From an uncultured Candidatus Saccharibacteria bacterium (GTDB lineage Bacteria; Patescibacteriota; Minisyncoccia; Phycocordibacterales; UBA12088), in the NCBI GenBank assembly GCA_964562615.1, contig CAZLUD010000002.1, forward strand, positions 153,300 to 217,299: a DNA stretch of 64,000 bases. The letters are read 5' to 3'. This document shows positions 11,320 through 47,195 of the stretch, piece after piece. The notes under the pieces are model-generated. The model was not told the origin of the DNA. It was given only the letters and a program-made list of their open reading frames with translations, and did no database searches. A program made the position numbers and the translations under genes. The first letter of the stretch is position 1, and the number at the start of each line of letters is the position of its first letter.

Positions 11320-11402
11320 AATATGTATCGTGTTGTCTACCTGCTAGTAATAGTATTCTACATCCCAATCACCACCAATTGCTGGCAGTTGTCCACTATC
11401 AA

Positions 11403-13500: not shown

Positions 13501-13512
13501 AACAAAAGCATA

Positions 13513-13541
13513 CAAGCCGCTGCGGTAACCGCAGCGGCTTG
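13513..13541. terminator. bidirectional terminator hairpin between convergent genes
   Basis: caagccgctgcgg-taa-ccgcagcggcttg perfect stem, followed by ttt. Confidence 0.7.
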
Positions 13542-13548
13542 TTTAGGC

Positions 13549-13995
13549 TTATGTCTCTGGGCGCTTCTTCCAGCCACAGTAGAAAACCCCAGGGCATGGA
13601 CTTGGCCACTGTTCTAAATAGGGTTTTCGTGAGCAAATTACAGCCTCAATTCCTTCTGGCATTTTTATTTTGTCACCCGCTTCTTCCATTTTGTCCAGAA
13701 AGTCTCGAGGAACGGGACACCACGACCCATCAACAAGTACGTGTTCTTTCCCTAGGGCGTCATACTTAATGACGGTCTGTCGGCATTCACCTCCTTTACC
13801 TCCGTCGCAACATGTTCCTCCCTTCAATGTTTCGAGTTGTTCAACAATACGATCGGCATGCAGTAGGCTGTGACCGAAGCCGTAATCCCCCACGTTCTGT
13901 CCTGGTGGTTTTGGCGTCCATTTTTTCTGATCCGCACCAAAGGAAGCGTCGGGAAAAAATAATACCAATGCACAGAGCGTGACGATCTTTTTCAT
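13549..13995 (-). CDS. small secreted cysteine-rich protein, unknown function
   Basis: Signal peptide MKKIVTLCALVLFFPDASFGA. The mature part carries 9 Cys (GGTCCDGGKGGECR, WCPVP, PCPGVFYCGW). By eye it is more GC-rich than its neighbours. Confidence 0.6.
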   Translation of the reverse strand: MKKIVTLCALVLFFPDASFGADQKKWTPKPPGQNVGDYGFGHSLLHADRIVEQLETLKGGTCCDGGKGGECRQTVIKYDALGKEHVLVDGSWCPVPRDFLDKMEEAGDKIKMPEGIEAVICSRKPYLEQWPSPCPGVFYCGWKKRPET

Positions 13996-14101
13996 AACAC
14001 TCTCCTTTACCTCTACTAAGTGAGGCACTGTACCTTTTATGCCCTCTCATGGTGACATCGTCAAATAGACAAACGCTCTCTCGTATTGTAAAAAGGGGTT
14101 C

Positions 14102-14130
14102 TTGACATTACTAAACGAGCGTGTTACTAT
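14102..14130 (+). promoter_or_regulatory. sigma70-like promoter TTGACA-17-TACTAT for CARDB paralog 2
   Basis: TTGACA at 14102-14107, a 17-nt spacer, TACTAT at 14125-14130. It lies inside the 5' extension of ORF 14102..15364, which argues for the downstream ATG at 14195. Confidence 0.5.
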
Positions 14131-14194
14131 GCTCCCGCATCAAGTAGTCGGTGCACACAGACCAATTATTCGTTTCGTATTATCAGTATTCATT

Positions 14195-15364
14195 ATGAAT
14201 CAGCAATATCAGAATCCGGGAGATGTGCAGGTAACCATCGAGCACCGCTCAAAGGTTGAAAGAGCAATAACACGCGCACTAGCAGTTATCGGCGTCATTG
14301 CCATTGTCGTTATTGTTATATGGGCAGGGCTTATGGTGGTTCGATCACTACCAACCGCAATTACCGCAGTACAAAATGCTGCCGTAGGACTTACTCAGGT
14401 GTTTTCACCAAAGAAAGAAGAGGCTATTAGCCTTTCAATGAGCACGCTTGTTGCTCGATCTGGTGCTCCATACACCATTGCGTGGGGACACACTACTACT
14501 GAGTCAACTGGCACCTATGCCCTTACCTACTCATGTAGAGATGGACTTTCAGTAGAATCACCTAATACTGATGGTACCTACCAGAGCGCATTTTGTGATA
14601 CTCCATTTAACTTTGCACGATCAAATAGCGAGATTCGCATTGTGCCTACATCAACACAAAATAGATACCTTGATGTACCAATGACCATCTCATACTTCCC
14701 TGAAGGAGCATCAACTCCAACAGTACAGAAGACATTCGTCATGACCATTGAGAATCCATCTGTATCGGTAAGTCCAAGTACTACTGGTGGAACAGTAGCA
14801 ACATCAACTGCCGCTACAAGCACACCAGTCACCACACCGACTACAACTACTCGCCCTACTACAGGCACCACACGACCAACGGGGACAACCACCGTTACCC
14901 CAGGCACTCGTACAGACAATACCTACCAAATTCCTGGTACTGGTGGCAGTACTCCTGGAAGCACTACCGCAAAACCTATCAATCCTAACGGAAAGCCTGA
15001 CCTTGCTGTCAACGTACTAGACGTTGGATACATTGACGCTGCTACCAACAAGTTTGTTGCTGCAAGCTCAGTAAACCGAAGTGAGCGAGTAGCAGTACGA
15101 TTTGAAATTGAGAACAAAGGAAACAATGTCTCAGACTCATGGATGTTCAGCGCGATACTTCCTACCTATCCTCCATTTGTATTCCAATCTCAAACGCAAC
15201 AGAAGCTAAATCCTGGTGAGAAGATTGAATACACCCTTGGATTCGATAAGGTAGCAACTGGAAACTCAGTAGATCTAAAAATATTTGCTGACCAGAGCCT
15301 CAAGATTAACGAATCTAATGAGGAGAACAACATCAAGATTGTTACTATCAACATCAGAGACTAG
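14195..15364 (+). CDS. membrane-anchored surface protein with C-terminal CARDB domain (paralog 2)
   Basis: Same architecture as 12373..13500: TM (ALAVIGVIAIVVIVIWAGLMVV), shared blocks (NRYLDVPMTISYFPEG, ENPSVSVSPS), a T/P linker and CARDB (KPDLAVNVLDVGY...DQSLKINESNEENN). Confidence 0.7.
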   Translation: MNQQYQNPGDVQVTIEHRSKVERAITRALAVIGVIAIVVIVIWAGLMVVRSLPTAITAVQNAAVGLTQVFSPKKEEAISLSMSTLVARSGAPYTIAWGHTTTESTGTYALTYSCRDGLSVESPNTDGTYQSAFCDTPFNFARSNSEIRIVPTSTQNRYLDVPMTISYFPEGASTPTVQKTFVMTIENPSVSVSPSTTGGTVATSTAATSTPVTTPTTTTRPTTGTTRPTGTTTVTPGTRTDNTYQIPGTGGSTPGSTTAKPINPNGKPDLAVNVLDVGYIDAATNKFVAASSVNRSERVAVRFEIENKGNNVSDSWMFSAILPTYPPFVFQSQTQQKLNPGEKIEYTLGFDKVATGNSVDLKIFADQSLKINESNEENNIKIVTINIRD

Positions 15365-29911: not shown

Positions 29912-30409
29912 CTATGCTTTAGGGGTTGCGTTTATTTCTCTCTCTGCTCGTTCTGCAAAAGCAAGAAAATCTGCTATCTCTTCTACTGTCATTGTTTTTG
30001 GTGTGTCACCCTTTATACAAAACACTCCCACTGCTTTGCCTGTTGCCTGATCATACAAAGACTTACCCGCATAAAATCGAACATACGGCTCTCCTAACAC
30101 CATAGGATTATCTTTGAAACGATCATCCAATAGCGTGTCGGGGACTACAAGCATTACTTCAGAAATAAGCGCATGTCCACAGAATGAGGTTGCTCGTGGT
30201 GCCTCCTTTTCAGTAAGGCCTTGTACGGATTTGTACCATTCTCTACCCTCATCAACTAACGTAATGGTAGATATGGGGACAGAAAATCTTGCCACCGCCT
30301 CTCTGGTTATTCGATCAAATCGCTCTTCATTTGAGGTATCAAGTAGTGATAACCCATGAAGTGCACACAAACGCTCCTTCTCATCCCTTGGTAAAGGTGC
30401 ATGTAACAT
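29912..30409 (-). CDS. stand-alone GAF domain protein
   Basis: EKERLCALHGLSLLDTSNEERFDRITREA...REWYKSVQGL...TSFCGHAL...DDRFKDNPMV...VRFYAG is a classic GAF sensor pattern. Confidence 0.8.
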   Translation of the reverse strand: MLHAPLPRDEKERLCALHGLSLLDTSNEERFDRITREAVARFSVPISTITLVDEGREWYKSVQGLTEKEAPRATSFCGHALISEVMLVVPDTLLDDRFKDNPMVLGEPYVRFYAGKSLYDQATGKAVGVFCIKGDTPKTMTVEEIADFLAFAERAEREINATPKA

Positions 30410-30535: not shown

Positions 30536-31045
30536 TTAGTCGACAACTATCTCTACCCCAACAAAAAACAAAACATTTTTATTAGTATCTAAAATGGGTG
30601 AAATCTGTAGCGTCACATTATAAAACTGACCATCCTTTCTCCTGTTTGCGATATTAAGGGTTATTGGGGATTTGTTCGCGATCATCACTGACCACGCCTC
30701 ATCATAAAATTCTTTTGGCATGTGCCCTCCCCAAAGCTCAGACGGTCTTTTACCGATAATCTCTTGTATGGGGTACTGAGTAGCTTCGACTACTGCATTG
30801 TTAACAAACATAATTGCTCCTGTGCTATCAGTGATGATGACTTGCTCTTTCATGGTCTCAAACACACGATTAAGCGTGCCACATCGCAGGCACTTTATCT
30901 CAGCACCATCAAGGCCATGATGCTTTGCTAACAACTTACCGCACTTCATACACCGAACATCTTTAAGTACAGATGGAAGAATGTCTGATGTGGCTACGGA
31001 TGGGTTGTTCATAGGCGAGTAACCACTATATGGTATACCAACCAC
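30536..31045 (-). CDS. Com-like zinc-ribbon fused to a PAS domain
   Basis: CMKCGKLLAKHHGLDGAEIKCLRCGTLN (CxxC...CxxC), then a PAS-like segment IITDSTGAIMFVNNAVVEATQYPIQEIIGKRPSELWGG...RRKDGQFYNVTLQISPI. The start is uncertain (31045 or 31012). Confidence 0.65.
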   Translation of the reverse strand: MVGIPYSGYSPMNNPSVATSDILPSVLKDVRCMKCGKLLAKHHGLDGAEIKCLRCGTLNRVFETMKEQVIITDSTGAIMFVNNAVVEATQYPIQEIIGKRPSELWGGHMPKEFYDEAWSVMIANKSPITLNIANRRKDGQFYNVTLQISPILDTNKNVLFFVGVEIVVD

Positions 31046-34317: not shown

Positions 34318-34782
34318 CTACCACAACCGTGCTGCTGGGGTATAAATCGCGCCTGTTCTTTGGCCGGTTCTTGCAGGATCCTGTAGCGGGCAAGATCCGG
34401 GGGTACATGCTTCAAGGGCTCCGTGGATAAGTATCTTGTAGTCAACTCCATTAGAGTAGTAGAGATAACAAATACCACTACTTGCCGTACTTGGGAGTGG
34501 GTCCATTGGCATACTAGAAATGTAGGTAGGTACAATACCCGGAATACCAGCGCCACCATAACAGCCAGGACTAGTTCCTTGCCACCCACCCACGACAGGA
34601 TAGTTTCCAAAATCGTTATAGTACATTTCAACTGCTCTTTCTATTTGGCGTACGTCAGCAATACGCCGAGCGTCTCTAGCTTTACCACGCGCACTATTAA
34701 GTGACGCAAACACTACTGAGGAAAGAAGTCCTATGATCGCAATGACGACAAGTAGTTCAATAAGGGTAAATCCTCTTTTCAT
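34318..34782 (-). CDS. type IV pilin-like protein (prepilin N-terminal cleavage/methylation domain), paralog P1
   Basis: MKRG|FTLIELLVVIAIIGLLSSVVFASLNSAR class III signal, with a variable Cys-containing C-terminal domain. Confidence 0.85.
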   Translation of the reverse strand: MKRGFTLIELLVVIAIIGLLSSVVFASLNSARGKARDARRIADVRQIERAVEMYYNDFGNYPVVGGWQGTSPGCYGGAGIPGIVPTYISSMPMDPLPSTASSGICYLYYSNGVDYKILIHGALEACTPGSCPLQDPARTGQRTGAIYTPAARLW

Positions 34783-34797
34783 AAATAAAGTAATGTA

Positions 34798-35274
34798 CTA
34801 GTAACCCCGAGCTCCGGTAGACCAATTACCATACGCCCAACAATCTCTCACTGGGTCTATAAGTCCTGGTGCTTGCGCCTTTACCCCCGCGCAATCTTGA
34901 GGATTATGCCAAATGAGTTTGTAGTCAGCTCCATTGTCTGAACGATAAATATAATTATCACTACAATTAGTAGAATTATTTGGTGACCGAGGGAGTGTAG
35001 GGATATAGTTTGGAGCAAGTCCTGGTATCCAGTTTGTCGTACTGTTGCCCCAGCAGGTATACAACCCGTCATATCTCCCCGATGTGCTTGGGTACGCATT
35101 ATTGTCGTTATAATACAATTCTAGTGCTATTTTTAGCTGCTCAAGATCTGCGATACTTCGAGCATTTCGAGCTTTTTGTCGTGCACTATTAAGTGACGCA
35201 AACACCACCGAAGAGAGTAGTCCGATAATAGCAATCACAACAAGTAGTTCAATGAGGGTGAATCCTCTTTTCAT
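34798..35274 (-). CDS. type IV pilin-like protein, paralog P2
   Basis: MKRG|FTLIELLVVIAIIGLLSSVVFASLNSAR. In tandem with P1, separated by a 15-nt spacer. Confidence 0.85.
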   Translation of the reverse strand: MKRGFTLIELLVVIAIIGLLSSVVFASLNSARQKARNARSIADLEQLKIALELYYNDNNAYPSTSGRYDGLYTCWGNSTTNWIPGLAPNYIPTLPRSPNNSTNCSDNYIYRSDNGADYKLIWHNPQDCAGVKAQAPGLIDPVRDCWAYGNWSTGARGY

Positions 35275-35297
35275 ACCTTACAGCATACCAAATATAC

Positions 35298-36707
35298 CTA
35301 TTCTCGAGAAAGGATATCTAGTTGTTTTTGGAAGTATGCTGCATGCTCCATCACCCCATCACCATAAAAGGCATAGGCGGGCTTGGTGGCATTACCCCAC
35401 CCCGCAAAGTATCTAAGAGCAGCGAGTCGCTCTGCGGCATACGTGCCAGCATCTGCACCATTATCCATCATGAGTACCCCGCTTGCCATAAAGGCATCAG
35501 CGTTTTTCCATGGATCAGAGGGGCTATTTTTGCCAAGAAGTTTTCGTATTCTGTCTTTGCTTGCAGAATATTCCCATGGCCCCGCCCAAAATTCATCCCA
35601 GCTCATTGTACGCTTTGCATTATTACAATCGTTGGTTTTTGAATTGATATAACCGCCATAACACGCCCACGTTGAAGGGATAAACTGTGCCGGCCCCATA
35701 GCGCCGCCCCACCCGTACCCTGGTTGTTTTGATACTGGCATTCTGTCTGGGTTGTAGCCAAGGGTAGAGGTTATTGCCTGAAAGAGTGGCCTATCTCGAG
35801 TAGGGTGCATATCCTCCTTCCATGTACCGGTACCAAGATACTCACCAAGCCTTGTCTCTTGTTTTAATACCCCAAGGATAAGCGCGGGGCGTACCCCCGT
35901 TGCCTTACCTGCTTGCCCTGCAAAGGTAACCGCATCACCAAAAGGTATCGCCGCAGAGTCTCGTAGTGAAAATAGCTCTGAACGAATTTCTGCAGCACTC
36001 TTTTCTTTTTGGTTGATAAGTGCTTGATATGATTTTTCTTGTCCTTTTGTTACAGAAAGAATATTTTGCTTTTGCTTTTCTTGTTGTTCAATTTTCTGCT
36101 TTTCAAGTAATTGCAGATTACGAAGCTCAGTTTCGTCAGAGCGTTTTGATTCAAGGGTGCTCTTTGCCTCTTCTGTGGTTACGACGGTATTTTCTATTTC
36201 TTCAAATGAATCTTGTAGGGCAATCTTTAATTGTGTAAACGAATCTAATTCTTCAAATACATCTGAAAGTGATTGGTTGCCAATAATAATCTCAACCATC
36301 GTAAGATCATCTATCTGATCTGTTCTACGTATGAGCTGCGCAAGAGAATTTTTCTCTCGCGTGAGTTTATCAGCAAGGCTGCCAATGGTGACCAGCTTTT
36401 CGCCTATATCGCCATTGATTTGTTGGATAGCAAGATCGCGTTGTCGTATGGCTAGCTTAGCTTTTGCAATTTGTGCATCAAGAATAGCAACGTCTCTCTC
36501 AAGCGAGACTCGCTCTTTTTGTTTACCTTCTAGTAGTACTCCCTGCGCTTGTATCTCCTTTTCTATCTGCTGTAATTGCGCTTCAAGCTCAGCGCGGCGC
36601 CGTGCTACATCTTCACTAGTTACCTGTGCTTGAAGGGTAGGCGCGTACGAATACACACCCATGCACAGTGAAAGTATAGTGATTGTGATATATCCAAAAC
36701 GCTTCAT
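35298..36707 (-). CDS. secreted coiled-coil protein with C-terminal lytic transglycosylase-like domain
   Basis: Signal peptide, about 250 aa of heptad-rich coiled coil, then LGVLKQETRLGEYLG (catalytic Glu context) and GAMGPAQFIPSTW, typical of SLT/MltB-type transglycosylases. Confidence 0.7.
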   Translation of the reverse strand: MKRFGYITITILSLCMGVYSYAPTLQAQVTSEDVARRRAELEAQLQQIEKEIQAQGVLLEGKQKERVSLERDVAILDAQIAKAKLAIRQRDLAIQQINGDIGEKLVTIGSLADKLTREKNSLAQLIRRTDQIDDLTMVEIIIGNQSLSDVFEELDSFTQLKIALQDSFEEIENTVVTTEEAKSTLESKRSDETELRNLQLLEKQKIEQQEKQKQNILSVTKGQEKSYQALINQKEKSAAEIRSELFSLRDSAAIPFGDAVTFAGQAGKATGVRPALILGVLKQETRLGEYLGTGTWKEDMHPTRDRPLFQAITSTLGYNPDRMPVSKQPGYGWGGAMGPAQFIPSTWACYGGYINSKTNDCNNAKRTMSWDEFWAGPWEYSASKDRIRKLLGKNSPSDPWKNADAFMASGVLMMDNGADAGTYAAERLAALRYFAGWGNATKPAYAFYGDGVMEHAAYFQKQLDILSRE

Positions 36708-36727
36708 GGTAGTCGTATTCTATCATA

Positions 36728-36759
36728 AAACAACACACCCCTTAAGGGGTGTGTTGTTT
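36728..36759 (-). terminator. terminator hairpin downstream of rplY
   Basis: aaacaacacacccc-ttaa-ggggtgtgttgttt. Confidence 0.6.
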
Positions 36760-36780
36760 AACGTCACTCTTTTGTGTTCA

Positions 36781-37431
36781 TTACTCGTCTGCTTTTGCAT
36801 CTGACTCTTCATCAGTCTTGCCTTTTTTGATTACTTCTATTGTAGAAAGGTCAGGTGCCACAGCATCTTCATCTTTTTCTTCAGTTACTGCAGCAACAAG
36901 TGCTACCACTTCTTCTGCGTTAGTGATAAGCGTAACACCCGTACTTAGCTTCAAATCCTTAGCGAGAATTTGACTCTCAAATGTCTCAAGAGTAGAAATA
37001 TCAACCTCGATACTATGAGGTAGATTCTTAGGAAGTGCTTCAATTGATACTTCGTGAAGTACTTTTACAAGGTTTCCTCCAAGTAGTTTTACTGCTGGCG
37101 CTTCACCAACGTATTCAAGTGGTACCTCCACTTCTACCATTTTGTCCGCCTCAATTGCATAAAAATCAACATGCACCGGAAGTCCTGAGATGTGATCAAT
37201 TGACACCTCTTGGATGAGTACGTCAATACCCTTTCCAAGGCCATCAAGCGTAACCACCGTTGACTCTCCCGCCTCTTCCCATACCTTTTTAAAATTAATT
37301 ACTGACACCGCGATTGGTGTTGACGCCTCCTTCTTTCCATAGACAACCGCAGGAATCATCGCCTCCTTTCTGAGGGATGCTCGCGCAGACTTTGATGTCT
37401 CTCGTTTTATTGCTTCTAGTTTTACTACCAT
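36781..37431 (-). CDS. rplY: 50S ribosomal protein L25 / general stress protein Ctc
   Basis: LRKEAMIPAVVYGKKE, the two-domain Ctc form and an acidic C-terminal tail. Confidence 0.9.
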   Translation of the reverse strand: MVVKLEAIKRETSKSARASLRKEAMIPAVVYGKKEASTPIAVSVINFKKVWEEAGESTVVTLDGLGKGIDVLIQEVSIDHISGLPVHVDFYAIEADKMVEVEVPLEYVGEAPAVKLLGGNLVKVLHEVSIEALPKNLPHSIEVDISTLETFESQILAKDLKLSTGVTLITNAEEVVALVAAVTEEKDEDAVAPDLSTIEVIKKGKTDEESDAKADE

Positions 37432-37500
37432 ACCGCAAAACTATACCTAATTATGGATATTTGGCAACCCACACGAGGTAGTATTACTAATATAATACGG

Positions 37501-38076
37501 TTACCACCCACTGCAGGTGCCTACGCCAATACAATAGTATGGGTCATTACAACCTCCGTTATTGTTATAGTAACTACCGTCCAAATCCCCTGCAAGGCTC
37601 TGATTATTAGCATTTTCAAGACGTACAGCGAGTCGATAACTCTGACCAGTACCGCATCCTGATGGCCACGCATAATAATAGGTTGGGTCCGCATCTGAAA
37701 ACCCTGATGGACTATCTTGTGGGTCTTGAGGAACCTCAGACATAAATACCGGTCGAGAAGATAGACCAAATCCACACGATGCATCACTTGCGGTTTCTAG
37801 ACATTGCGCAAAGTAATCCCAATGCTGATCCCATGTAGGTGCTCCGGGACTACTTGGATAGCGTCCATGGGTGTCATAAAACAATTCTAGTGCGGTGCGA
37901 ATCTGCTGAAAGTCTGCTATACGTTTTGCATCACGTGCTTTACTGCGCGCGCTATTAAGTGACGCAAACACCACCGAAGAGAGTAGTCCGATGATAGCAA
38001 TGACAACAAGAAGCTCGATGAGAGTAAATCCCATCGTGGAGGATTGTCTATGATTTCTCTGTAACAAATTATGCAT
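37501..38076 (-). CDS. type IV pilin-like protein, paralog P3
   Basis: Leader MHNLLQRNHRQSSTMG|FTLIELLVVIAIIGLLSSVVFASLNSAR. The longer ORF to 38157 would run into the divergent kinase gene. Confidence 0.8.
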   Translation of the reverse strand: MHNLLQRNHRQSSTMGFTLIELLVVIAIIGLLSSVVFASLNSARSKARDAKRIADFQQIRTALELFYDTHGRYPSSPGAPTWDQHWDYFAQCLETASDASCGFGLSSRPVFMSEVPQDPQDSPSGFSDADPTYYYAWPSGCGTGQSYRLAVRLENANNQSLAGDLDGSYYNNNGGCNDPYYCIGVGTCSGW

Positions 38077-38132
38077 AACTGCTACACTATATATACAGCA
38101 ATAATAGTATATCAGCTTACCAGTATTTACAC

Positions 38133-39128
38133 ATGGAAAAACTTGATTTTGTAGCAATTGGCGACATCGTAAATGATGAATTCATTGAGCTCTCACCAGA
38201 GTGGACTAAAGTAGTAACAGATACTGAAAGTGGGCGCGAGCTCCTTGCTATGAATTTTGGAGACAAAATTGAGTTTAAAGACTTTGTCATTGTTCCTGCA
38301 GTAGGCAATAGTCCAAATGCTGCAGTAAGTGCGCACCGCTTGGGTCTGCGTAGCGCGCTAGTAACTGATATGGGAGATGATGACGAGGGCGATCAGATGA
38401 TGCGCCAACTTGAGCACGAGGGTGTTGATAGACAATTTATACGAAGACATCCAGGGAAAAAATCAAATCATCATTACGTACTACGCCTTGCCCCTGAACG
38501 AACCATTTTGATTAAGCACGAAGAGTACCCCTACTCACTTCCTGATCTTGGTGAGCCATCATGGATATATTTCAGCTCGGTAGGAAATAACTCCCTCCCG
38601 TATCACCAGGAAATTGCCACGTATGTAAAAAATCACCCAGCAAGCAAATTGGTATTTCAGCCTGGATCGTTCCAAATCAAATTAGGATACGAAGTACTTA
38701 AATCAATATATGAAGCATCTACATTATTCTTTTGTAACAAAGAAGAAGCGCAGAGTATTGTAGGAAAAAAGGAGCTTGATATAAAACAATTACTGACAGC
38801 AATCCATGAAAAGGGTCCAAAAATCGTAGTGATTACTGATGGCCCACGAGGTGCCTACGCAAGCGATGGTACAAACGCCTGGCACATGCCTATGTATCCT
38901 GACATTGCCCCACCTGTTGATAGAACTGGTGCTGGTGATTCATTCTCTTCAACATTTACAAGCGCGCTTGCATTAGGACATGACATACCAACGGCATTGA
39001 GTTGGGGTCCAATTAACTCAATGTCTGTAGTACAAGAGATTGGCGCACAAAAGGGACTCCTCTCTCAAGAAGCAATACAGCAATACCTCCAAAACGCACC
39101 TGCAGAGTACACTCCGACGCTCCTATAG
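38133..39128 (+). CDS. PfkB-family carbohydrate/nucleoside kinase (ribokinase-like)
   Basis: GDIVNDEF near the N-terminus, and the PfkB signature 2 context VDRTGAGDSFSSTFTSAL. Confidence 0.85.
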   Translation: MEKLDFVAIGDIVNDEFIELSPEWTKVVTDTESGRELLAMNFGDKIEFKDFVIVPAVGNSPNAAVSAHRLGLRSALVTDMGDDDEGDQMMRQLEHEGVDRQFIRRHPGKKSNHHYVLRLAPERTILIKHEEYPYSLPDLGEPSWIYFSSVGNNSLPYHQEIATYVKNHPASKLVFQPGSFQIKLGYEVLKSIYEASTLFFCNKEEAQSIVGKKELDIKQLLTAIHEKGPKIVVITDGPRGAYASDGTNAWHMPMYPDIAPPVDRTGAGDSFSSTFTSALALGHDIPTALSWGPINSMSVVQEIGAQKGLLSQEAIQQYLQNAPAEYTPTLL

Positions 39129-39135
39129 CAAAAAG

Positions 39136-39336
39136 CTATTCTTTGTAGAGATCAACATCATCAAAATCTCTGCCCTTTAAGATTTGATCATTTTGTACTC
39201 GTGTTGCTGAGATATCAGCAATGAATGCTTCGCTGTGCGATACTTTGTAAATAAGAAACATCGCACCACCCGCTAGTAATCCGAGAAATATTCCACTGAA
39301 CCAAAAATTTAATTTTATTGCGTGTAAATTTCTCAT
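39136..39336 (-). CDS. small membrane protein (66 aa)
   Basis: MRNLHAIKLNFWFSGIFLGLLAGGAMFLIY, then a soluble tail. The TTG-extended ORF has no support. Confidence 0.4.
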   Translation of the reverse strand: MRNLHAIKLNFWFSGIFLGLLAGGAMFLIYKVSHSEAFIADISATRVQNDQILKGRDFDDVDLYKE

Positions 39337-39349
39337 GGTGATTATCTTA

Positions 39350-39481
39350 TTAATACACAAGCATTGAGTGGGATATTGTCCAAAGAAAGTAGTATGCTCC
39401 TGCGGTGACTGATGATATAAAAAACCATGCAACAATTGGTCTTACTTCGTATGCCTTCATTGCTGAGAATTTCTTTTTCAT
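39350..39481 (-). CDS. possible 43-aa membrane peptide (not in the ORF track)
   Basis: ATG lies 2 nt after the transketolase stop. Translation: MKKKFSAMKAYEVRPIVAWFFISSVTAGAYYFLWTISHSMLVY, ending at TAA (39350-39352). Confidence 0.3.
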   Translation of the reverse strand: MKKKFSAMKAYEVRPIVAWFFISSVTAGAYYFLWTISHSMLVY

Positions 39482-39483
39482 GA

Positions 39484-40476
39484 TTACGCTTGTGTTAAGG
39501 AAATAGCTTTTTGTATGATACTAGGCACATCTAGCCCATACGCAGTGTATAACTCTTGTGTGGTACCAGACTGGCCAAATCGGTTTTGTACCCCTACAAA
39601 CGCCATCTTTGTTGGTCGATTGAGTGATAGGGTTTCTGCTACCGCTCCTCCGAGCCCGGCAATCACTTGATGCTCTTCAACGGTAAGGATGGCGTTAGTT
39701 TCATTTGCAAGTGCTACTATCGCATCGGTATCAAGAGGTTTTATAGTATGTACTGAAAGTACCACCGAGCTAATACCAAGACGAGTCTCTAATTCAACCG
39801 CAGCCTGTATGGCCTGATACACCATGCTTCCCATCGCAATGATACCTACCGTTGGCGCATTTCCTTGCCACACTCTATAGGCCTTCCCTATTTCAAATGG
39901 AGTATCTTTGGTAGTAAGTAATGGGGTATTTTCTCTTGCAAATCTAAGGTACATGGGGCGCTTACTTGTTGCAGCAGCAAGGGTTGCCTTTCTTGCTTCT
40001 TCCATGTCGGATGGGACAATCACGGTCATATTAGGTATCACCCGCATAAGCGCGACATCCTCAAGTGCTTGATGTGTTGCACCATCAGGACCCACCGAGA
40101 GGCCGGCATGCATACCACAAACCACTACTGGTTGCTCATTAAGCGCAATGGTGGTGCGTATCTGTTCATTATTGCGTCCAGGATTAAAAGCGGCGTAGGA
40201 GGTGATAAACGGCACCTTTCCCATTGATGCCATACCACTTGCTACTCCTGCAAGATTTTGTTCGGCAACCCCAAGCTCAATGTACCTATCAGGAAATTTT
40301 TCTTTAAACCAATGACTGCGGGTACTCTCTGCCAAGTCCGCACACAGCACTACTACATTGTGGTCACGCTCACCCGCCTCTACTACCCCCTTACCAAAAC
40401 CATCGCGTGTAGCACCTTCTTCTCTCGCGGTGGCATCAAGTATTCCTTTATGTAATCGGGCTTCTCCTACCAGCAT
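39484..40476 (-). CDS. transketolase, C-terminal (pyrimidine-binding) subunit
   Basis: ATRDGFGKGVVEAG, FPDRYIELGVAEQNLAGVASGMA. Forms a split transketolase with the gene upstream. Confidence 0.9.
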   Translation of the reverse strand: MLVGEARLHKGILDATAREEGATRDGFGKGVVEAGERDHNVVVLCADLAESTRSHWFKEKFPDRYIELGVAEQNLAGVASGMASMGKVPFITSYAAFNPGRNNEQIRTTIALNEQPVVVCGMHAGLSVGPDGATHQALEDVALMRVIPNMTVIVPSDMEEARKATLAAATSKRPMYLRFARENTPLLTTKDTPFEIGKAYRVWQGNAPTVGIIAMGSMVYQAIQAAVELETRLGISSVVLSVHTIKPLDTDAIVALANETNAILTVEEHQVIAGLGGAVAETLSLNRPTKMAFVGVQNRFGQSGTTQELYTAYGLDVPSIIQKAISLTQA

Positions 40477-40477
40477 A

Positions 40478-41341
40478 TTAGTCGTGGTTACTTGGAGTTA
40501 TCTTTCCTCCTAATGTACGAAGTTCTTTGAGCCATCTTAGTTCTTGCTCTTTATTTGGTGGCATACCATGCCATTTATAATCGTACTCGATCTCTTTTAT
40601 TCCCTTACCGGCTATTGCGTGCGCAATAATAAGCGTGGGCTTTTCGTACACTGCTTTTGCTTGTTCTACCGCATCAACAATTGCCTCCATGTTGTGCGCG
40701 TCTATATCAATAACATTCCAATTAAATGCTTCGTACTTGTCTTTGAGTGGCTCAAGAGGCATCACATCTTCGGTCATGCCGTTTATTTGTATATTGTTTC
40801 TGTCTATTATAGCGGTGAGATTTGATAGCTTGTACTTACCCGCAAACATAACCGCCTCCCACACATTACCTGCATCCTGCTCACCATCACCCATCATGCA
40901 ATACGTGCGAAATGGTTTTTTATCCATTCGGGCGGCAAGTGCAATTCCTGCTGCTTGAGAAAGTCCAGTACCCAACGGACCAGAAGTGGTTTCCATTTCT
41001 GGTAACAAAATACGTTCAGGGTGTCCCTGCATACGTGATCCAAATTTTCTAAGTGTTTTAGCTTCTTCAACACTAAAATAACCCGCAAGCGCCATCGTTG
41101 CGTACCGTATAGGAACAATATGTCCGTTAGAGAGGATGAATCTATCCCTCTCCTCAAACATTGGTTCTTTTGGCGAATGATTTAATATATGAAAATAAAA
41201 TGCAGTAAACACATCCGCCATACCAAGCGGACCTGCGGTGTGCCCTGACCCAGCATCCTCAAGCATGTCGATAAGCAATTGCCGTACTTCGTTTGCTTTG
41301 TTTTCAAGAAAAAGTCTTTTTTCTTCTGTGAGATATGCCAT
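40478..41341 (-). CDS. transketolase, N-terminal (TPP-binding) subunit
   Basis: GSGHTAGPLGMADVFTAFYF, SNGHIVPIRYA, MMGDGEQDAGNVWEA. Confidence 0.9.
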   Translation of the reverse strand: MAYLTEEKRLFLENKANEVRQLLIDMLEDAGSGHTAGPLGMADVFTAFYFHILNHSPKEPMFEERDRFILSNGHIVPIRYATMALAGYFSVEEAKTLRKFGSRMQGHPERILLPEMETTSGPLGTGLSQAAGIALAARMDKKPFRTYCMMGDGEQDAGNVWEAVMFAGKYKLSNLTAIIDRNNIQINGMTEDVMPLEPLKDKYEAFNWNVIDIDAHNMEAIVDAVEQAKAVYEKPTLIIAHAIAGKGIKEIEYDYKWHGMPPNKEQELRWLKELRTLGGKITPSNHD

Positions 41342-41384
41342 TACTACTATGATACCTCAAATAGACGCTTTCGGTATCCACACA

Positions 41385-41858
41385 CTAGCGTTCAAAGCCT
41401 CCTAAGACATAATCAAATTCTCCTTGCCAGTATCGTGATGGACAACTCCATCCAGGTGAATCTGGGTGTGGGTTAGGAGATGTCTCCATGTCCCGTACCC
41501 CAAGTACAAAATATGCCCCACGAGCACTATCGCACCCTGCATAGCCCGCTGGGTACCGGTAGTAATTGTATCCTTGGCAGTCAGCAGTAAATCCCTCGTC
41601 GATGGGCACTCTCCCTCCAAAATAGGTGTCCATACCCCTTCCGTTAAGTAGTGGGTATGTACGGTTGCCATTATCCCACCCACCGCATCCATCAAAATCT
41701 GAATCTGGGTAGGCGTTATAATCTGAATAATACAACGCGAGCGCTTTTACGATTTCTTGAATCTCTGCCAATCGTGCGGCATCTCGTGCCTTTGTGCGCG
41801 CACTATTAAGCGAGGCAAATACCACCGATGAAAGTAGTCCGATGATGGCGATAACCAC
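41385..41858 (-). CDS. type IV pilin-like paralog P4 lacking a canonical start codon and leader (possible pseudogene or atypical initiation)
   Basis: Homology (SGA-FTLIELLVVIAIIGLLSSVVFASLNSAR) extends in frame up to 41888, where it abuts the rpe stop. The codons between the in-frame TGA and FTLIE are AGC ATA AGC GGT GCG, with no ATG/GTG/TTG. The first ATG (41858) falls inside the hydrophobic helix. Confidence 0.55.
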   Translation of the reverse strand: MVIAIIGLLSSVVFASLNSARTKARDAARLAEIQEIVKALALYYSDYNAYPDSDFDGCGGWDNGNRTYPLLNGRGMDTYFGGRVPIDEGFTADCQGYNYYRYPAGYAGCDSARGAYFVLGVRDMETSPNPHPDSPGWSCPSRYWQGEFDYVLGGFER

Positions 41859-41887
41859 AAGTAGCTCAATGAGGGTAAACGCACCGC

Positions 41888-42583
41888 TTATGCTTCATGG
41901 ATAGCGTCTTCTGCTATGGTGAGTAATGTGTGGTACGCATCTTTTGGTGACGCATCTGCAAAGATTGCTGACCCTGCGGCAAAGTGCGTGGCGCCTGCTG
42001 TGATTAGTTTTTTAATGGTGCGCTTACTAACACCAATATCCACTCCAATCACAACCTCGCTCATTGCATGTATACGCGAGATGATGTCATATACTCGCTC
42101 ATCAAGTGATGTACCCTGTCTACCTATAGTATCGCTTCCCATTACTTGGAGAAGGTCAATCTCATTGAGTAATGTCTCATAACCTTGTGACGATGGGGTA
42201 ATTGCAAGACCTACTCGTGTCCCGCGCTCGCGCGCACGACTAATACATTCACTTAGTTCACTTGCTGAGCATGAGGTAAAGTGAAATATAAGTGTTGACG
42301 ACCCGGCATCAATCCATGCATCAATATGCTCTTTTGGATTTGCTACCATAAGGTCAATTTCATACTCAACTCTATCCCATTTTGGAAGACCTGTATCTTG
42401 CGCGAGAATTTCTTGCCACTCACCATCTGCCTTAGCACCTATCGGCCACGTTGATGGTGTCGCAAACACACCATCAACAATATCAATTTGTATATGCGTT
42501 GCAGGAGGTGCAATAAGAGAGACTTTTTCGCTCAGATCTGCGTATGACGTTGGCAATATGGCGGGTAAAAGCTGGATAGTCAT
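41888..42583 (-). CDS. rpe: ribulose-phosphate 3-epimerase-like TIM-barrel protein
   Basis: THIQIDIVDGVF (the H-x-D...DG metal/active-site context), DLMV, VGLAITP, DLLQVM, a GxD...G phosphate-binding end, and an insertion after the first strand. Confidence 0.7.
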   Translation of the reverse strand: MTIQLLPAILPTSYADLSEKVSLIAPPATHIQIDIVDGVFATPSTWPIGAKADGEWQEILAQDTGLPKWDRVEYEIDLMVANPKEHIDAWIDAGSSTLIFHFTSCSASELSECISRARERGTRVGLAITPSSQGYETLLNEIDLLQVMGSDTIGRQGTSLDERVYDIISRIHAMSEVVIGVDIGVSKRTIKKLITAGATHFAAGSAIFADASPKDAYHTLLTIAEDAIHEA

Positions 42584-42593
42584 ATACGTACAG

Positions 42594-43100
42594 TTATCGC
42601 GAACAAACGGCGTAATTCATATTATACCCTGGGTTAACTGGTACTGTGGCAAAACGAGCAGTATCCTCAGGAGTAGGACTTTCAAGCTGTGCGTACACGC
42701 ACACACTCGTCTGTGATCCATATGGGTGATAAATCATGTAATGATTGCCAGGATCTGGATGCTTTATTTCACCTGATGTAAAACCTGCGTTCATAAGTGC
42801 TCTTGAAACAGACAATGCATAGCTTCCAGTGTCTTGATAATCAAACCAACCACATGAGCATCCCTGCCACCCTGACCCAGCAACTTGAAATGTATTATAC
42901 GTATCATAATACAATTGGAGCGCAGTCATTGCCTGCGAAAGATCTTGCTTTCGCTTTGCATCTCGCGCCTTTCCACGAGCACTATTAAGCGACGCAAATA
43001 CCACCGATGAAAGTAGCCCGATGATGGCGATAACCACGAGTAGCTCAATGAGGGTAAATCCTTTTTTGTTTTTTGCGCGCTGTTGATAATAGGTAAACAT
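42594..43100 (-). CDS. type IV pilin-like protein, paralog P5
   Basis: Leader MFTYYQQRAKNKKG|FTLIELLVVIAIIGLLSSVVFASLNSAR. Confidence 0.85.
   Translation of the reverse strand: MFTYYQQRAKNKKGFTLIELLVVIAIIGLLSSVVFASLNSARGKARDAKRKQDLSQAMTALQLYYDTYNTFQVAGSGWQGCSCGWFDYQDTGSYALSVSRALMNAGFTSGEIKHPDPGNHYMIYHPYGSQTSVCVYAQLESPTPEDTARFATVPVNPGYNMNYAVCSR
42974..43052 (-). repeat. 79-nt segment identical to 44495..44573 (pilin constant region)
   Basis: cacgagcactattaagcgacgcaaataccaccgatgaaagtagcccgatgatggcgataaccacgagtagctcaatgag occurs in both P5 and P6. P4 differs at 3 positions over the same span. Confidence 0.9.
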
Positions 43101-43204
43101 TGGTATTCTCTAAGAAATAAAATAGTACATTAATAGTAACATACCCTTGCTTTTTTTTATTTTTTGTATAGTATTAATCATACAAATGGCCACTAGGCCC
43201 CCGA

Positions 43205-43228
43205 GAAACCCCGCTTAGGCGGGGTTTC
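43205..43228 (-). terminator. hairpin 5 nt downstream of the mazF-like stop (no clear U-tract on the minus strand)
   Basis: gaaaccccgc-ttag-gcggggtttc. Confidence 0.4.
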
Positions 43229-43233
43229 GACTT

Positions 43234-43620
43234 TTATAACTTTGGAAAGAATTGCTGAACTTGAGCCAAAATTTTCTTGAACTGATTTTTCGGTAATTTA
43301 TACATAAGACGTTCTAGACGTTTGCTACTAACAAGTCTAAGTTGAGAAAGGATAACTGCCGATCCTTCTTGTCCGCCAATCGGAAAATAATACTGATTTC
43401 GCTTATCTGATGTAGTAAGTGGAAGTGCCCAAAAAACGTCCCTATTAAATTTCTTTATTACCAGAACGGGCCTTTCGAACTTTTCTCCACCATCTTGCTC
43501 ATACCCCACGTTTAGCCCAAGCGAACACCACCATATCTCTCGCTCATGAAAGAACGGAACATTCTCTCTTTCATGAATAATTTTCTTTTTCTTATTCCAG
43601 ACTTCAAAATCTTTTTTCAT
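43234..43620 (-). CDS. PemK/MazF-family toxin-like protein
   Basis: REIWWCSLGLNVGYEQDGGEKFERPVLVIKKF...ALPLTT...SAVILSQLRLVSSKRL aligns by eye with the MazF/EndoA pattern (G.EQ.G.RPVL.I ... P.T ... S..L..Q.R....RL). Confidence 0.7.
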   Translation of the reverse strand: MKKDFEVWNKKKKIIHERENVPFFHEREIWWCSLGLNVGYEQDGGEKFERPVLVIKKFNRDVFWALPLTTSDKRNQYYFPIGGQEGSAVILSQLRLVSSKRLERLMYKLPKNQFKKILAQVQQFFPKL

Positions 43621-43628
43621 GCTACCAC

Positions 43629-44078
43629 CTATAACGTATCAAGCTTGTGATTACGTCTACTATGTCGCTCCTCATTTGGAAAAATTGTCGTAAGAAATAT
43701 TTTAACCGCCGCCTTTGCCTCATCATGAGTCAAAAACCTTGCGCCGAGTGATAACGCATTTGCATCATTATGCTCTCTACTCAAGGTTATAAGCTCAAGG
43801 TTGTTGGTATTGTAAGATACTGCTCGTACCCCCTTAAAACGGTTTGCCATAATCGCCTCTCCATACCCTGATCCACCAAGTATGATTGCTCGAGTGTCTT
43901 CATCTGCGTGTGAGAGTTCTTTTGCAGCAAGTGCAATGTAGTCATTGTAATCATCATCCGCGACAAGAGCACTTGCTCCCATATCAACAACTTCGTGCCC
44001 TAATACATGAGCTACATACTCAACAAGCACCTCTTTTAGAGCGAAGCCTGCGTGATCTGTTGCAAATAATATTTTCAT
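43629..44078 (-). CDS. rpiB: ribose-5-phosphate isomerase B
   Basis: MKILFATDHAGFALKEVL, ILGGSGYGEAIMANRFKGVRA (RpiB/LacA/LacB family). Confidence 0.9.
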   Translation of the reverse strand: MKILFATDHAGFALKEVLVEYVAHVLGHEVVDMGASALVADDDYNDYIALAAKELSHADEDTRAIILGGSGYGEAIMANRFKGVRAVSYNTNNLELITLSREHNDANALSLGARFLTHDEAKAAVKIFLTTIFPNEERHSRRNHKLDTL

Positions 44079-44087
44079 AAATGAATT

Positions 44088-44621
44088 TTAGTGGTCAGCA
44101 AACATATACGGGCTATAGCCGTAGCCGCCTCCCGCATAACTGCACCAATAAGTTTCTCCTCCCCAATCATGATATCGCCAACCTCGTACCGCGCATCGCT
44201 CAGGATGACTTGTGTTTTCAAATTGTCCAACGAGGTCATATTTTTGACCTGAACCAGAGCCGTATACATACGTATAGTAGCCATTATTCCACGGACCAGC
44301 ACATGAGGTATTGATAGGATCCTTTGGCAAACTTGGCATATATGCTGTTAAAGCACTTTGTAAGTTATTCCATGACGAATCACAGCTATACCACCACCCT
44401 CCAATTGGATACGCACCATTTGCATCATAATAAAGCTCAAGCGCTATTCTTACCTGCTGTAAATCAGCCTGTCTTTTTGCATCTCGCGCCTTTGCACGAG
44501 CACTATTAAGCGACGCAAATACCACCGATGAAAGTAGCCCGATGATGGCGATAACCACGAGTAGCTCAATGAGTGTAAACCCCTTTCTTGTATTATTACT
44601 TAATGAAGAGAAAGTACCCAT
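44088..44621 (-). CDS. type IV pilin-like protein, paralog P6
   Basis: Leader MGTFSSLSNNTRKG|FTLIELLVVIAIIGLLSSVVFASLNSAR. Confidence 0.85.
   Translation of the reverse strand: MGTFSSLSNNTRKGFTLIELLVVIAIIGLLSSVVFASLNSARAKARDAKRQADLQQVRIALELYYDANGAYPIGGWWYSCDSSWNNLQSALTAYMPSLPKDPINTSCAGPWNNGYYTYVYGSGSGQKYDLVGQFENTSHPERCAVRGWRYHDWGGETYWCSYAGGGYGYSPYMFADH
44495..44573 (-). repeat. 79-nt segment identical to 42974..43052 (pilin constant region)
   Basis: Direct comparison of the two stretches in the sequence shows no mismatch. Confidence 0.9.
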
Positions 44622-44626
44622 TATAG

Positions 44627-45664
44627 TTATATATACTTTCCCGCTTCTTTGACGTGCTGTATAAGCGAGTGAGTGTAGCCCATTTCATTGTCGTACCACG
44701 CAAGTACCTTAACAAGGTCACCATCTACCACCTGCGTAAGGGAGAGATCCGCTATTGAGGCAAAGGGCTGTCCCAACACATCACTTGATACTATAGGTTC
44801 TTCTGTGAATGAAAACACATCTTTCCACCGAGGAGTAAGTGCCGCTTCTTTAAGTGCGGTGTTTACTTCTGCTACTGAGGTACGTCTTTTTGCAACAAAT
44901 GTAATATCAGCAATTGACCCTGCGATTACAGGCACTCGCATTGCCACCCCATCAAATTTTCCTGCAAGATCGGTAATAGCCTTGGTGGTAGCAACCGCTG
45001 CGCCGGTAGTGGTGGGTACAATGTTGTGTGCTGCAGCTCTCCCTTCTTTCCAATCTTTTGGTTTGGTACCGTCGACAATAGATTGACTTGCGGTATAAGC
45101 ATGGGTGGTGTTAAGCATTGCCTTTTCTATGCCAATAGCCTCATGCAATATTTGTATCACAGGAGACACGGCATTAGTGGTGCATGATGCATTAGAAGAT
45201 ATATCTGCGTCTTTAAGAAGCTCGGTATTAATACCCATTAGCGCGGTAACTCCAACAATTCCATTTGGTGCCTCGTCTTTTACCGGAGCGCTGATAACCA
45301 CTCGTTTAGCTCCTGCCTCAAGATGTACTCGCGCCTTTTCATAACTTGCAAATACACCGGTAGATTCAAGGACTATATCAATATCTAATTCACCCCACGG
45401 CAACATGGTGGGATCTTTTTCTGATAAAAATCTCGTATGATTACCCTCAACATCCATAAACACCGCACTCCCCTCCTTTTTTATTTTTGGGTCAAACCCG
45501 CTTCGCCCATACACCGTGTCGTATTTAAGCAGATACGCAAGATTTTCTGCGTCGCCTAAGTCATTAATGGCGATTATTTGTAATTCAGGAATATTTTTAG
45601 CAACACTAAAAAATGCCCTTCCTATTCTTCCAAATCCATTTATTGCTACTCGTATTCTTTTCAT
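44627..45664 (-). CDS. gap: glyceraldehyde-3-phosphate dehydrogenase
   Basis: VAINGFGRIGR, SNASCTTNAVSP (active-site Cys) and WYDNEMGY. Confidence 0.95.
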   Translation of the reverse strand: MKRIRVAINGFGRIGRAFFSVAKNIPELQIIAINDLGDAENLAYLLKYDTVYGRSGFDPKIKKEGSAVFMDVEGNHTRFLSEKDPTMLPWGELDIDIVLESTGVFASYEKARVHLEAGAKRVVISAPVKDEAPNGIVGVTALMGINTELLKDADISSNASCTTNAVSPVIQILHEAIGIEKAMLNTTHAYTASQSIVDGTKPKDWKEGRAAAHNIVPTTTGAAVATTKAITDLAGKFDGVAMRVPVIAGSIADITFVAKRRTSVAEVNTALKEAALTPRWKDVFSFTEEPIVSSDVLGQPFASIADLSLTQVVDGDLVKVLAWYDNEMGYTHSLIQHVKEAGKYI

Positions 45665-45728
45665 TGTATCTAGTATACATTACTTTTTTTCAACATATCA
45701 CCTTTATTCCCATTCTTTTGTTCTGCCG

Positions 45729-46259
45729 TTATATACCCCCCGTCGTTACTTTATAATTTGGTCTATTAGAAGAGCCGCACGCACCCGCCCCACCTCGCAA
45801 CCAATTATCTGTACCACTTGCTGGGTTGAGATTATTTTGGGTCTGATCTTCAAGAGTGGCATACAGCGCGTACTGTGTTGCTCCTGCATTTGGCGCAGAA
45901 CAATTGTTATATACGTTGCTTATATATAAATATGAATTGTTGTAACAGCTTCCATCTTGTGGGTCCTTAGGAAAAGTAGGAAGAAACTGTAACATTTTTG
46001 ACTCCATAGCAAGACTTGTCTCAATTTGATAATCAACCGCTGGACATGCGCTAGATGGGTATCCACCATACGTGTCGTAATACAATTCGAGCCCTTTCTG
46101 AAGCTCAGCTAGATCGGCTTTTCTTCGAGCATCGCGAGCCTTTCCACGCGCGGTATTTAATGACGCAAATACTACCGACGAAAGTAGCCCGATGATGGCG
46201 ATAACCACCAGAAGCTCGATGAGGGTAAATCCATGTTTGTATCTTAAAAATTTATGCAT
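45729..46259 (-). CDS. type IV pilin-like protein, paralog P7
   Basis: Leader MHKFLRYKHG|FTLIELLVVIAIIGLLSSVVFASLNTAR. Confidence 0.85.
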   Translation of the reverse strand: MHKFLRYKHGFTLIELLVVIAIIGLLSSVVFASLNTARGKARDARRKADLAELQKGLELYYDTYGGYPSSACPAVDYQIETSLAMESKMLQFLPTFPKDPQDGSCYNNSYLYISNVYNNCSAPNAGATQYALYATLEDQTQNNLNPASGTDNWLRGGAGACGSSNRPNYKVTTGGI

Positions 46260-46571
46260 AGAATATTGTGCACAGTATACTATATTGATTACTCGATTGG
46301 CGCTGCAGCTGGCGCATCACCTAATATACATCCCATACACTTATAAGTGGTGGTAATGTCGAGTTTTATTACAATAGTGGAGATTACACCAACGTATCAA
46401 GCTACCTATTTAAAAGGATCAAGCGTATCTATATATTCTATTAGTAAGAGTAATTTACCACTCTCTGATTATGAAAATTTAAGTAGGAAATTGTACAAAA
46501 ATACACTCACATCTTCACGCTTAAGTTGGCATCCCTTGAAAATCTATCTCGTCTAAACGAGATACGTTGAT

Positions 46572-47195
46572 TTATAAAGATATTTCGGATGCTGATACCA
46601 CCTGGACTCCTCGGGTAAGTCCTTCTGAATCAGAGTATGAGTATGTTGCTTCAAGCCCGAAAGTAGCGATTGCAAACAGTAGTACCGCGGCAGCTGGTAG
46701 CAAAATGCCCTGCATAGTAAATCTAACACTGCGAGGAGTGTGTCGTACCTGAATTGGCGACAGTATCTCTCTTTTAACCGGCACTGTCTCTACTGGTGAG
46801 ACTAGCGACTCTGTTTTTTGTGGCAAATCCTTTGATACCATTGGATAGAGGGGTGCATCGTCATATTCAAACATTATTTGCTCCTCATTTTTAGGAATAA
46901 ATGATGATCTTTTTGATAATTCCTCAACAAGGTACTTTTGCCTCTCGGTGTAGGTGCCCTTTCTCTTAATTTCTACAGCCATACCCCTTGGAGAATTCTC
47001 AGAAATTCGCTTTTGAACCTTTCTGCCGCAAAGAGATGTCTGCTCGACGTACCAAGTACGCCCAACCAACCTACAGTCTGCTCTGTTAGCTCTACAAAGC
47101 TGACCAATGTAATCAGTAGTATATCCAGTAAGCTGTGACGCTCGTACTGAAGATACATACGCCTTACCATTAAAGACTAGTGCATTCTCCTTCAT
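46572..47195 (-). CDS. hypothetical protein with N-terminal HTH-like (excisionase/MerR-like) segment and C-terminal TM
   Basis: YVSSVRASQLTGYTTDYIGQLCRANRADCRLVGRTWYV resembles a small HTH. The C-terminal helix is GILLPAAAVLLFAIATFGL. Confidence 0.5.
   Translation of the reverse strand: MKENALVFNGKAYVSSVRASQLTGYTTDYIGQLCRANRADCRLVGRTWYVEQTSLCGRKVQKRISENSPRGMAVEIKRKGTYTERQKYLVEELSKRSSFIPKNEEQIMFEYDDAPLYPMVSKDLPQKTESLVSPVETVPVKREILSPIQVRHTPRSVRFTMQGILLPAAAVLLFAIATFGLEATYSYSDSEGLTRGVQVVSASEISL

Follow-up and report, generated by a model that had tools for sequence, protein, structure and literature searches.

How do two genes for different pilins come to share a stretch of DNA that is identical down to its synonymous sites? 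This question is raised by P5 and P6, two of seven type IV pilin paralogs (P1 to P7) encoded in a 64,000-nt stretch of the genome of an uncultured Candidatus Saccharibacteria bacterium (contig CAZLUD010000002.1, positions 153,300 to 217,299 of the forward strand; hereafter the window, with positions counted from its first letter). Comparison with related genomes indicated that the identity very probably arose by short-tract, non-allelic gene conversion between neighbouring paralogs, and not as part of a programmed system of variation.

The shared segment of P5 and P6

An original prediction, made from the letters of the window, had placed a 79-nt perfect identity in P5 and P6, and we found it at exactly these positions:

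42974..43052, minus strand, P5 repeat copy, by exact identity (near-identical tract 42955-43058)
44495..44573, minus strand, P6 repeat copy, by exact identity (near-identical tract 44476-44579)

The minus strand of the repeat encodes LIELLVVIAIIGLLSSVVFASLNSAR, and the bases that flank the identity differ on both sides. Beyond this core, a single mismatch is followed by 18 identical bases on one side, and on the other, upstream side one mismatch is followed by 5 identical bases, the near-identical tract amounting to 104 nt with 2 mismatches (42955-43058 versus 44476-44579). The two copies are in direct orientation and 1521 nt apart, in agreement with the direct repeats about 1.5 kb apart first described, and the divergence reported for the rest of the two genes was also borne out, with leaders reading MFTYYQQRAKNKKG in P5 and MGTFSSLSNNTRKG in P6 and head domains only 23% identical. 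Two of the earlier counts needed correction: P4 differs from P5 and P6 at 6 of the 79 positions rather than at 3, and the window holds seven paralogs with the constant segment, not eight. Over the same core, P7 differs from P5 and P6 at 11 nt and P1-P3 at 15-16 nt.

Since the encoded protein segment is invariant, only synonymous sites are free to vary, and it is at these sites that P5 and P6 agree. The same codon is used at 27 of 28 positions, a match with P = 4e-13 against the 0.33 per codon expected from codon usage in the window, and with P = 2e-8 against 0.47 per codon, the mean of 87 other pairs of copies from the window and a syntenic relative. The check for recombination that accompanied the original prediction likewise came out in its favour, as a GENECONV-like permutation of polymorphic sites gave a global P = 0.0004 for the P5/P6 run of 27 concordant sites. 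In a more distant genome (L083), five pilins differ from one another by only 1-4 residues in the 32 N-terminal amino acids, yet every pair differs at 20-33 of 96 nt, showing that near-identical protein can go with diverged DNA and that selection on protein alone does not yield identity of DNA. Nor are P5 and P6 recent duplicates, because their heads are as diverged as those of any other pair.

The segment is carried by seven minus-strand open reading frames (ORFs), all of which encode the N-terminal helix FTLIELLVVIAIIGLLSSVVFASLN(S/T)AR:

34318..34782, minus strand, P1 prepilin, 154 aa, leader MKRG; Pfam N_methyl
34798..35274, minus strand, P2 prepilin, 158 aa, leader MKRG; Pfam N_methyl and T2SSG
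37501..38076, minus strand, P3 prepilin, start taken as MHNLLQR...; Pfam N_methyl
41385..41898, minus strand, P4 pilin paralog with a +1 frameshift in the leader; Pfam N_methyl
42594..43100, minus strand, P5 prepilin, 168 aa, leader MFTYYQQRAKNKKG then FTLIE...; Pfam N_methyl, 37.2 bits
44088..44621, minus strand, P6 prepilin, 177 aa, leader MGTFSSLSNNTRKG; Pfam N_methyl, 36.3 bits; AF2 model
45729..46259, minus strand, P7 prepilin, 176 aa, with the sole amino-acid change in the constant segment (S26T); Pfam N_methyl

Type IV pilins are recognised by a short leader whose last residue is Gly(-1), by a Phe at +1 and a Glu at +5, and by a hydrophobic alpha1-N helix that continues into a long N-terminal helix packed against a globular head. 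Apart from S26T in P7, all seven proteins have the same mature N-terminus, FTLIELLVVIAIIGLLSSVVFASLNSAR, and each combines it with a leader and a head domain of its own, the heads being 15-36% identical in pairwise comparison. Pfam N_methyl scored above its cut-off of 21.2 bits in seven of seven (22.4-37.2 bits). The motif GFTLIE follows leaders of 4-16 aa in P1, P2, P3, P5, P6 and P7, whereas P4 differs in having Ala at -1 and a frameshifted leader. For P6, an AlphaFold2 (AF2) model built with 61 homologs (pLDDT 91.9) predicted a helix at residues 17-68 (52 residues) followed by a beta-rich globular head, and its fold matches in the Protein Data Bank (Foldseek) were nearly all pilins or pseudopilins, including PilA4, EpsG and gonococcal pilin, as weak matches with E of at least 0.035. 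Judged by these sequence features, the seven paralogs are type IV pilins, either major-pilin or pseudopilin-like. The scan of window ORFs turned up no gene for pilus machinery, whether for a prepilin peptidase or for PilB/PilC-type assembly proteins.

Comparison with related genomes

The comparison that carries the argument is with L085 (GCA_964409035.1), a relative reached via 90%-identity protein clusters, whose orthologs are marked here by primes (P1' to P7'). L085 has the same gene order and orthologs of seven of the seven window pilins. Housekeeping proteins are 92-98% identical between the two genomes, except for RpiB and Rpe, with the same codon at only 44-61% of identical-amino-acid positions and a dS that ranges from 0.9 to saturated in all genes. 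P5' and P6' are 77% and 88% identical in protein sequence to their window counterparts, and the heads of these two pilins are 77-88% identical between orthologs versus 23% between the paralogs P5 and P6.

Over 84 nt of the constant region, the ortholog pairs of window and L085 differ at 10-18 positions. P5 and P6 differ at a single position in the window, whereas P5' and P6' differ at 13 in L085; P1' and P2' differ at only 2 in L085, where they share a 93-nt exact run, whereas P1 and P2 differ at 14 in the window. All members of these two homogenised pairs (P5 and P6, P1' and P2') are 12-14 differences away from their own orthologs, and Fisher tests on the constant-region differences gave P = 0.0012 and 0.0027 for the two pairs. 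Among the 91 pairs that can be formed from the 14 copies, the same codon was found at 6-19 of 28 positions in all but four, namely P5-P6 (27), P1'-P2' (26), P4-P5 (23) and P4-P6 (22), and all four of these outliers are pairs of neighbouring genes within one genome. Quartets of paralogs and orthologs pointed the same way: informative sites in the constant region supported the within-genome grouping 4:0:0, and those in the next 81 nt supported the ortholog grouping by 10-17 versus 1-2.

The median constant-region difference within a genome (15-16 of 84) equals that between non-orthologs of the two genomes, which indicates that homogenisation has been episodic and pair-specific rather than a concerted evolution of all paralogs. 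Of the two processes that the original prediction had named together, gene conversion is thus upheld by the contrast between P5-P6 (1 difference) and the same genes and their orthologs (12-14), and concerted evolution of the whole set is not. Read in this way, the sequences have shown conversions that are lineage-specific, recurrent and synonymous, and that together make up a mosaic history.

A further layer of this mosaic was seen in L095 (Logan SRR21681524), which spans the 3' end of GAPDH, P6 and RpiB at 96% identity to the window. Its P6 carries 7 synonymous differences from the window P6 within 44523-44574 and none in the next 54 nt, with 6 of the differences packed in 25 nt (Poisson P = 4e-4). 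The first 57 nt of the L095 copy are closest to P7 (3 differences), and the following 54 nt equal the window P6, which indicates that one of the two lineages underwent a very recent further conversion of the 5' half. Judging from this copy, at least two events appear to have contributed to the P5/P6 identity. Smaller or similar tracts were found elsewhere: P2 and P3 have in common a 41-nt exact tract (P3 37952-37992, P2 35186-35226; pairwise P = 0.007), and at an unrelated locus (L068) the two pilins of a tandem pair differ at 5 of the first 180 nt and are about 60% identical after that.

We considered whether the identity could have arisen with no recombination, through purifying selection on the nucleotides themselves, be it for codon preference, for mRNA structure or for the translation kinetics of the signal-anchor segment. 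Such selection would fit a protein segment that is invariant in 14 of 14 copies, the recurrence of the codons TCG GTG GTx TTT GCx TCx CTT AAT in most copies of both genomes, and a same-codon mean in non-outlier pairs (0.47) above the codon-usage expectation (0.33). However, it does not hold the same gene constant between genomes (10-18 of 84) or P5' and P6' within one (13), it leaves the L083 paralogs, with nearly the same protein, at 20-33 differences in 96 nt, and the homogenised pair is not the same in the two genomes. We therefore regard it as extremely improbable.

An assembly artefact, in which graph simplification or consensus polishing merged similar segments, was weighed in the same manner. 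The assemblies are short-read throughout, and bubble removal can collapse near-identical repeats. Against this, an independent JGI contig from another strain (L001) has the same sequence, with 15 single-nucleotide polymorphisms (SNPs) in 11.7 kb and none of them in P5 or P6. In each of four separate runs, the Logan contig opens at position 43003, a point 30 nt (k-1, with k = 31) into the P5 copy, where a break is to be expected if the reads truly contain the repeat; one of the four ends at the end of the P2/P3 tract. Moreover, the comparable 93-nt tract in L085 affects a different pair. An artefact of this kind is hardly credible given these observations. Seven of the window's 15 SNP differences from L001 fall in P1 (within 34318-34678), and 3 of these are nonsynonymous (V51I, P72S and T127S).

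A synonymous strain SNP lies in the P2 constant segment at position 35215, where the window has CTC and L001 has CTT, the variant of P4-P7; it may reflect a micro-conversion at one site or simply a mutation.

For ectopic gene conversion, the following course can be proposed. Purifying selection on the alpha1-N helix would keep the 5' ~85-105 nt of all copies compatible for recombination, and an occasional short non-reciprocal transfer, presumably RecA-dependent, would then give one copy the version of this segment carried by a copy close by. The route may be intrachromosomal or may involve ectopic pairing of DNA taken up from sibling cells, and the tract would end where leader and head are too diverged for pairing. 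The last P5/P6 event would have followed the split from L085 and probably fell around the split from L095. Because the protein segment is already identical, the conversions are synonymous and phenotypically silent, and they would be a by-product of constraint, neutral in effect, rather than a device for variation. We infer the enzymology, the neutrality and the direction of transfer, for which L095 weakly suggests P5 to P6.

Several points count against this explanation. Polarising the P5/P6 event with L085 as outgroup gave no direction, since synonymous sites are saturated at that distance. All sequences come from short-read metagenome assembly, no conversion was caught in the act, and the comparison set consists of three close relatives.

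The idea of programmed variation and the status of P4

The identical segments could instead be recombination sites of a programmed pilin variation, comparable to pilE/pilS of Neisseria or to a shuffling of cassettes, with P4 as a silent donor. The original prediction leaned this way in suggesting that the repeats could mediate deletion, duplication or shuffling, and in likening the locus to pilE/pilS, though without silent cassettes. Direct repeats 1.5 kb apart, a P4 that lacks a usable start codon and has an intact body, the occurrence of P6-family pilins at different positions of the same metabolic cluster across lineages, and the absence of P1 from a relative, L091, would all be in keeping with such a system.

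In P4, the ancestral ATG at 41898-41896 in the leader (41877-41898) lies 19 nt before the Phe+1 codon (41879-41877), compared with 18 nt in L085. GAFTLIE is preceded at five codons' distance by an in-frame TGA, and no ATG, GTG or TTG separates the two. The frameshift is present in every assembly of the lineage; L001 from JGI and four Logan contigs repeat the window sequence, which shows that it is not a sequencing error. The ORF of the body is intact, with a dN/dS of 0.029 versus P4', and residue -1 is Ala in both genomes. P4 is thus frameshifted in its leader, yet not truncated.

The behaviour of the whole set, however, is not that of a shuffling system. The order and the head identity of seven of seven pilins are the same in the window and L085, although dS between them has reached about 1 or more, and the tracts are confined to the constant segment and synonymous. 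The pilin dN/dS is 0.011-0.088 (in the five genes with estimable dS), like that of most housekeeping genes, which places the heads under purifying selection. Ten predicted leader/body chimeras had 0 matches in a collection of 15 billion proteins, a weak negative that covers exact full-length matches only. No G-quadruplex (G4) motif (G3+N1-7, four times) occurs on either strand of the whole window, and no 5'-truncated silent cassettes were found, all seven copies having the constant segment with a full-length body and six of them their own leader and start. As for L091, the gene that remains there is an intact P2 and not a hybrid of P2 leader and P1 head, and repeat-mediated deletion was accordingly rejected as the cause of the missing P1.

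The conserved pilin order and heads, the failure of all ten chimeras to appear in the exact look-up, the synonymous tracts, the low dN/dS and the lack of G4 motifs lend no support to deletion, duplication or shuffling at the repeats or to variation of the pilE/pilS type. Both readings are speculation at this point, and we consider programmed variation as a whole to be highly improbable.

The metabolic gene cluster and known systems

The pilin genes are interleaved, with gaps of 5-70 nt, with same-strand genes for GAPDH, RpiB, Rpe, a split transketolase (TktN and TktC) and ribosomal protein L25, and PfkB lies within the same stretch on the opposite strand. Two genes are found between the repeat copies of P5 and P6:

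43629-44078, minus strand, RpiB (Pfam), between the repeat copies
43234-43620, minus strand, solitary PemK/MazF-like toxin (Pfam), between RpiB and P5

The toxin gene has no adjacent antitoxin ORF, is followed by a strong GC-rich hairpin (43205-43228) and is absent as an insert from L085. A promoter and terminator scan of 41000-47000 returned 7 promoter-like sites versus 13.8 expected, and the hairpin downstream of the toxin gene was the only clear one. RpiB shares 53% identity with its L085 counterpart, compared with 92-98% for the flanks, and its best match from other Paceibacteria families reaches 58%; by these identities it looks like a xenologous replacement in one lineage. L095 carries the window-type RpiB. 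P5 (77%) and Rpe (75%) are also more diverged from L085 than the flanks are. An import of RpiB, toxin, P5 and Rpe as one block from a single donor was rejected, the divergence order of Rpe and RpiB being reversed: identity to distant relatives is 38% for Rpe versus 58% for RpiB, and identity to L085 is 75% versus 53%, meaning that Rpe normally evolves faster than RpiB yet here is the less diverged of the two.

This patchwork bears on a further explanation of the P5/P6 identity, a recent partial duplication or head swap in which the 5' end of one gene was joined to an older or foreign head. The region from P6 to P4 is indeed a mosaic relative to L085, with RpiB at 53%, the inserted toxin, P5 at 77% and Rpe at 75% between flanks of 92-98%. 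Nevertheless, both P5 and P6 have positional orthologs in L085 with different constant segments of their own, from which it follows that the genes are older than the identity and that replacement was limited to the 5' segment; by definition, this is conversion. Furthermore, L095 has P6 together with the window-type RpiB and a different 5' half. A head swap is therefore very unlikely, and gene conversion remains the explanation we adopt.

The position of pilins within the GAPDH-RpiB-Rpe-TktN-TktC-PfkB-L25 cluster (pilins at 34318-46259 in the window) varies among lineages, as seen in L082, L083, L093, L094, L092 and L041. In a relative with P0005, a P6 ortholog of 66% identity, four tandem pilins lie between TktN and TktC; in L093 and L094 the cluster is uninterrupted and one pilin follows PfkB; in L092 a P6-family pilin follows MurD. 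With the GAPDH of this bacterium, which belongs to the Paceibacteria in the candidate phyla radiation, a scan of genome contigs found relatives of at most 64% identity among species representatives, most of them without pilins beside GAPDH, and yielded L068 and L041. Scanning metagenome contigs with the P6 head domain found no relative, and a degenerate 38-nt pattern of the constant segment had 0 matches in metagenome contigs.

It is conceivable, though we think it unlikely, that the alpha1-N segment acts as a portable homology for the insertion, exchange and loss, between housekeeping genes, of pilin head cassettes and of neighbours such as the foreign RpiB-PemK/MazF block across Paceibacteria lineages. 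If true, this would explain the varied positions of P6-family pilins, the pilin-bounded divergent block and the loss of the P4 start at its boundary, and in the silent conversions one would be seeing traces of a recombination hotspot by which the pilin repertoire is also turned over. The varying position of pilins inside a cluster for central metabolism is in itself the more unusual observation.

Synteny with L085 stops immediately before P7, on its upstream side. There, the window encodes GatB and a 207-aa ORF (46260-46572), and L085 (1-8380) a surface protein that exceeds 4500 aa and includes Peptidase_S74 and Ig-like domains. Elsewhere in the window, a 2258-aa surface protein with SdrD_B, SpaA and Ig-like domains (4543-12278) adjoins a sortase gene and is followed by two CARDB-domain proteins (12166-15364). 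The phenylalanyl-tRNA synthetase beta subunit (781 aa, 24769-27114) contains an NlpC/P60 peptidase domain (residues 351-463) between B3_4 and B5, and a small protein in which a PAS domain is joined to a Mu Com-like zinc ribbon (30536-31045) adjoins a stand-alone GAF-domain protein (29912-30409).

In bacteria, ectopic gene conversion between paralogs and their concerted evolution are known from duplicated tuf genes and rRNA operons. The window resembles these cases in that paralogs within a genome are closer than orthologs, that a short contiguous tract is discordant with its flanks, and that events are independent in each lineage. It differs in that only ~80-105 nt take part, episodically and between neighbours only, with no whole-gene identity; the rest of the pilin genes is too diverged to pair, so that the paralogs keep distinct functions. 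Conversion between paralogs has also been surveyed prokaryote-wide (PMC6053082).

The window and pilE/pilS of Neisseria (PMC4023411) are alike in that type IV pilin genes are involved, that recombination between the copies is non-reciprocal and that the N-terminal coding part is conserved. In Neisseria, silent cassettes that lack a promoter and are truncated at the 5' end act as donors, and the tracts fall in the variable part and alter the expressed protein, whereas here the copies are full length, the tracts are synonymous and in the constant part, the heads are under purifying selection and there is no G4.

A closer resemblance in protein design is offered by Haloferax volcanii, whose six pilins, PilA1-PilA6, have an almost completely conserved hydrophobic H-domain (PMC4371748). 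They match the window in combining a near-identical N-terminal hydrophobic segment with different heads and in lying away from the assembly genes, and by analogy this pattern suggests interchangeable subunits for one machinery. The Haloferax system differs in being archaeal, in its processing by PibD and in having had its function tested, the window pilins being known from sequence; the passages of PMC4371748 that were searched make no mention of gene conversion.

Within the candidate phyla radiation (CPR), Nanosynbacter lyticus TM7x (PMC11623550) is comparable in that its numerous pilin genes are spread over several loci and encode proteins with conserved N-terminal features and strongly diverged heads, which have been described as the major and minor pilins of two systems. 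In PMC11623550 we found nothing on an identical N-terminal segment, on conversion or on embedding in a cluster for sugar metabolism, and our literature search found no report of constant-segment conversion among CPR pilins. The process itself is ordinary ectopic gene conversion, in a new setting.

These results have practical as well as biological consequences. Identical segments of 80-105 nt break k-mer assemblies, as the Logan contigs that end at them illustrate, and identical pilin N-termini can mislead phylogenies or recombination scans. For CPR bacteria, whose recombination biology is known only from genomes, the P5/P6 segment provides a clean, controlled example of short-tract conversion. 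For the pilins themselves, seven distinct heads on one invariant helix, each under purifying selection, point to a stable repertoire of interchangeable subunits.

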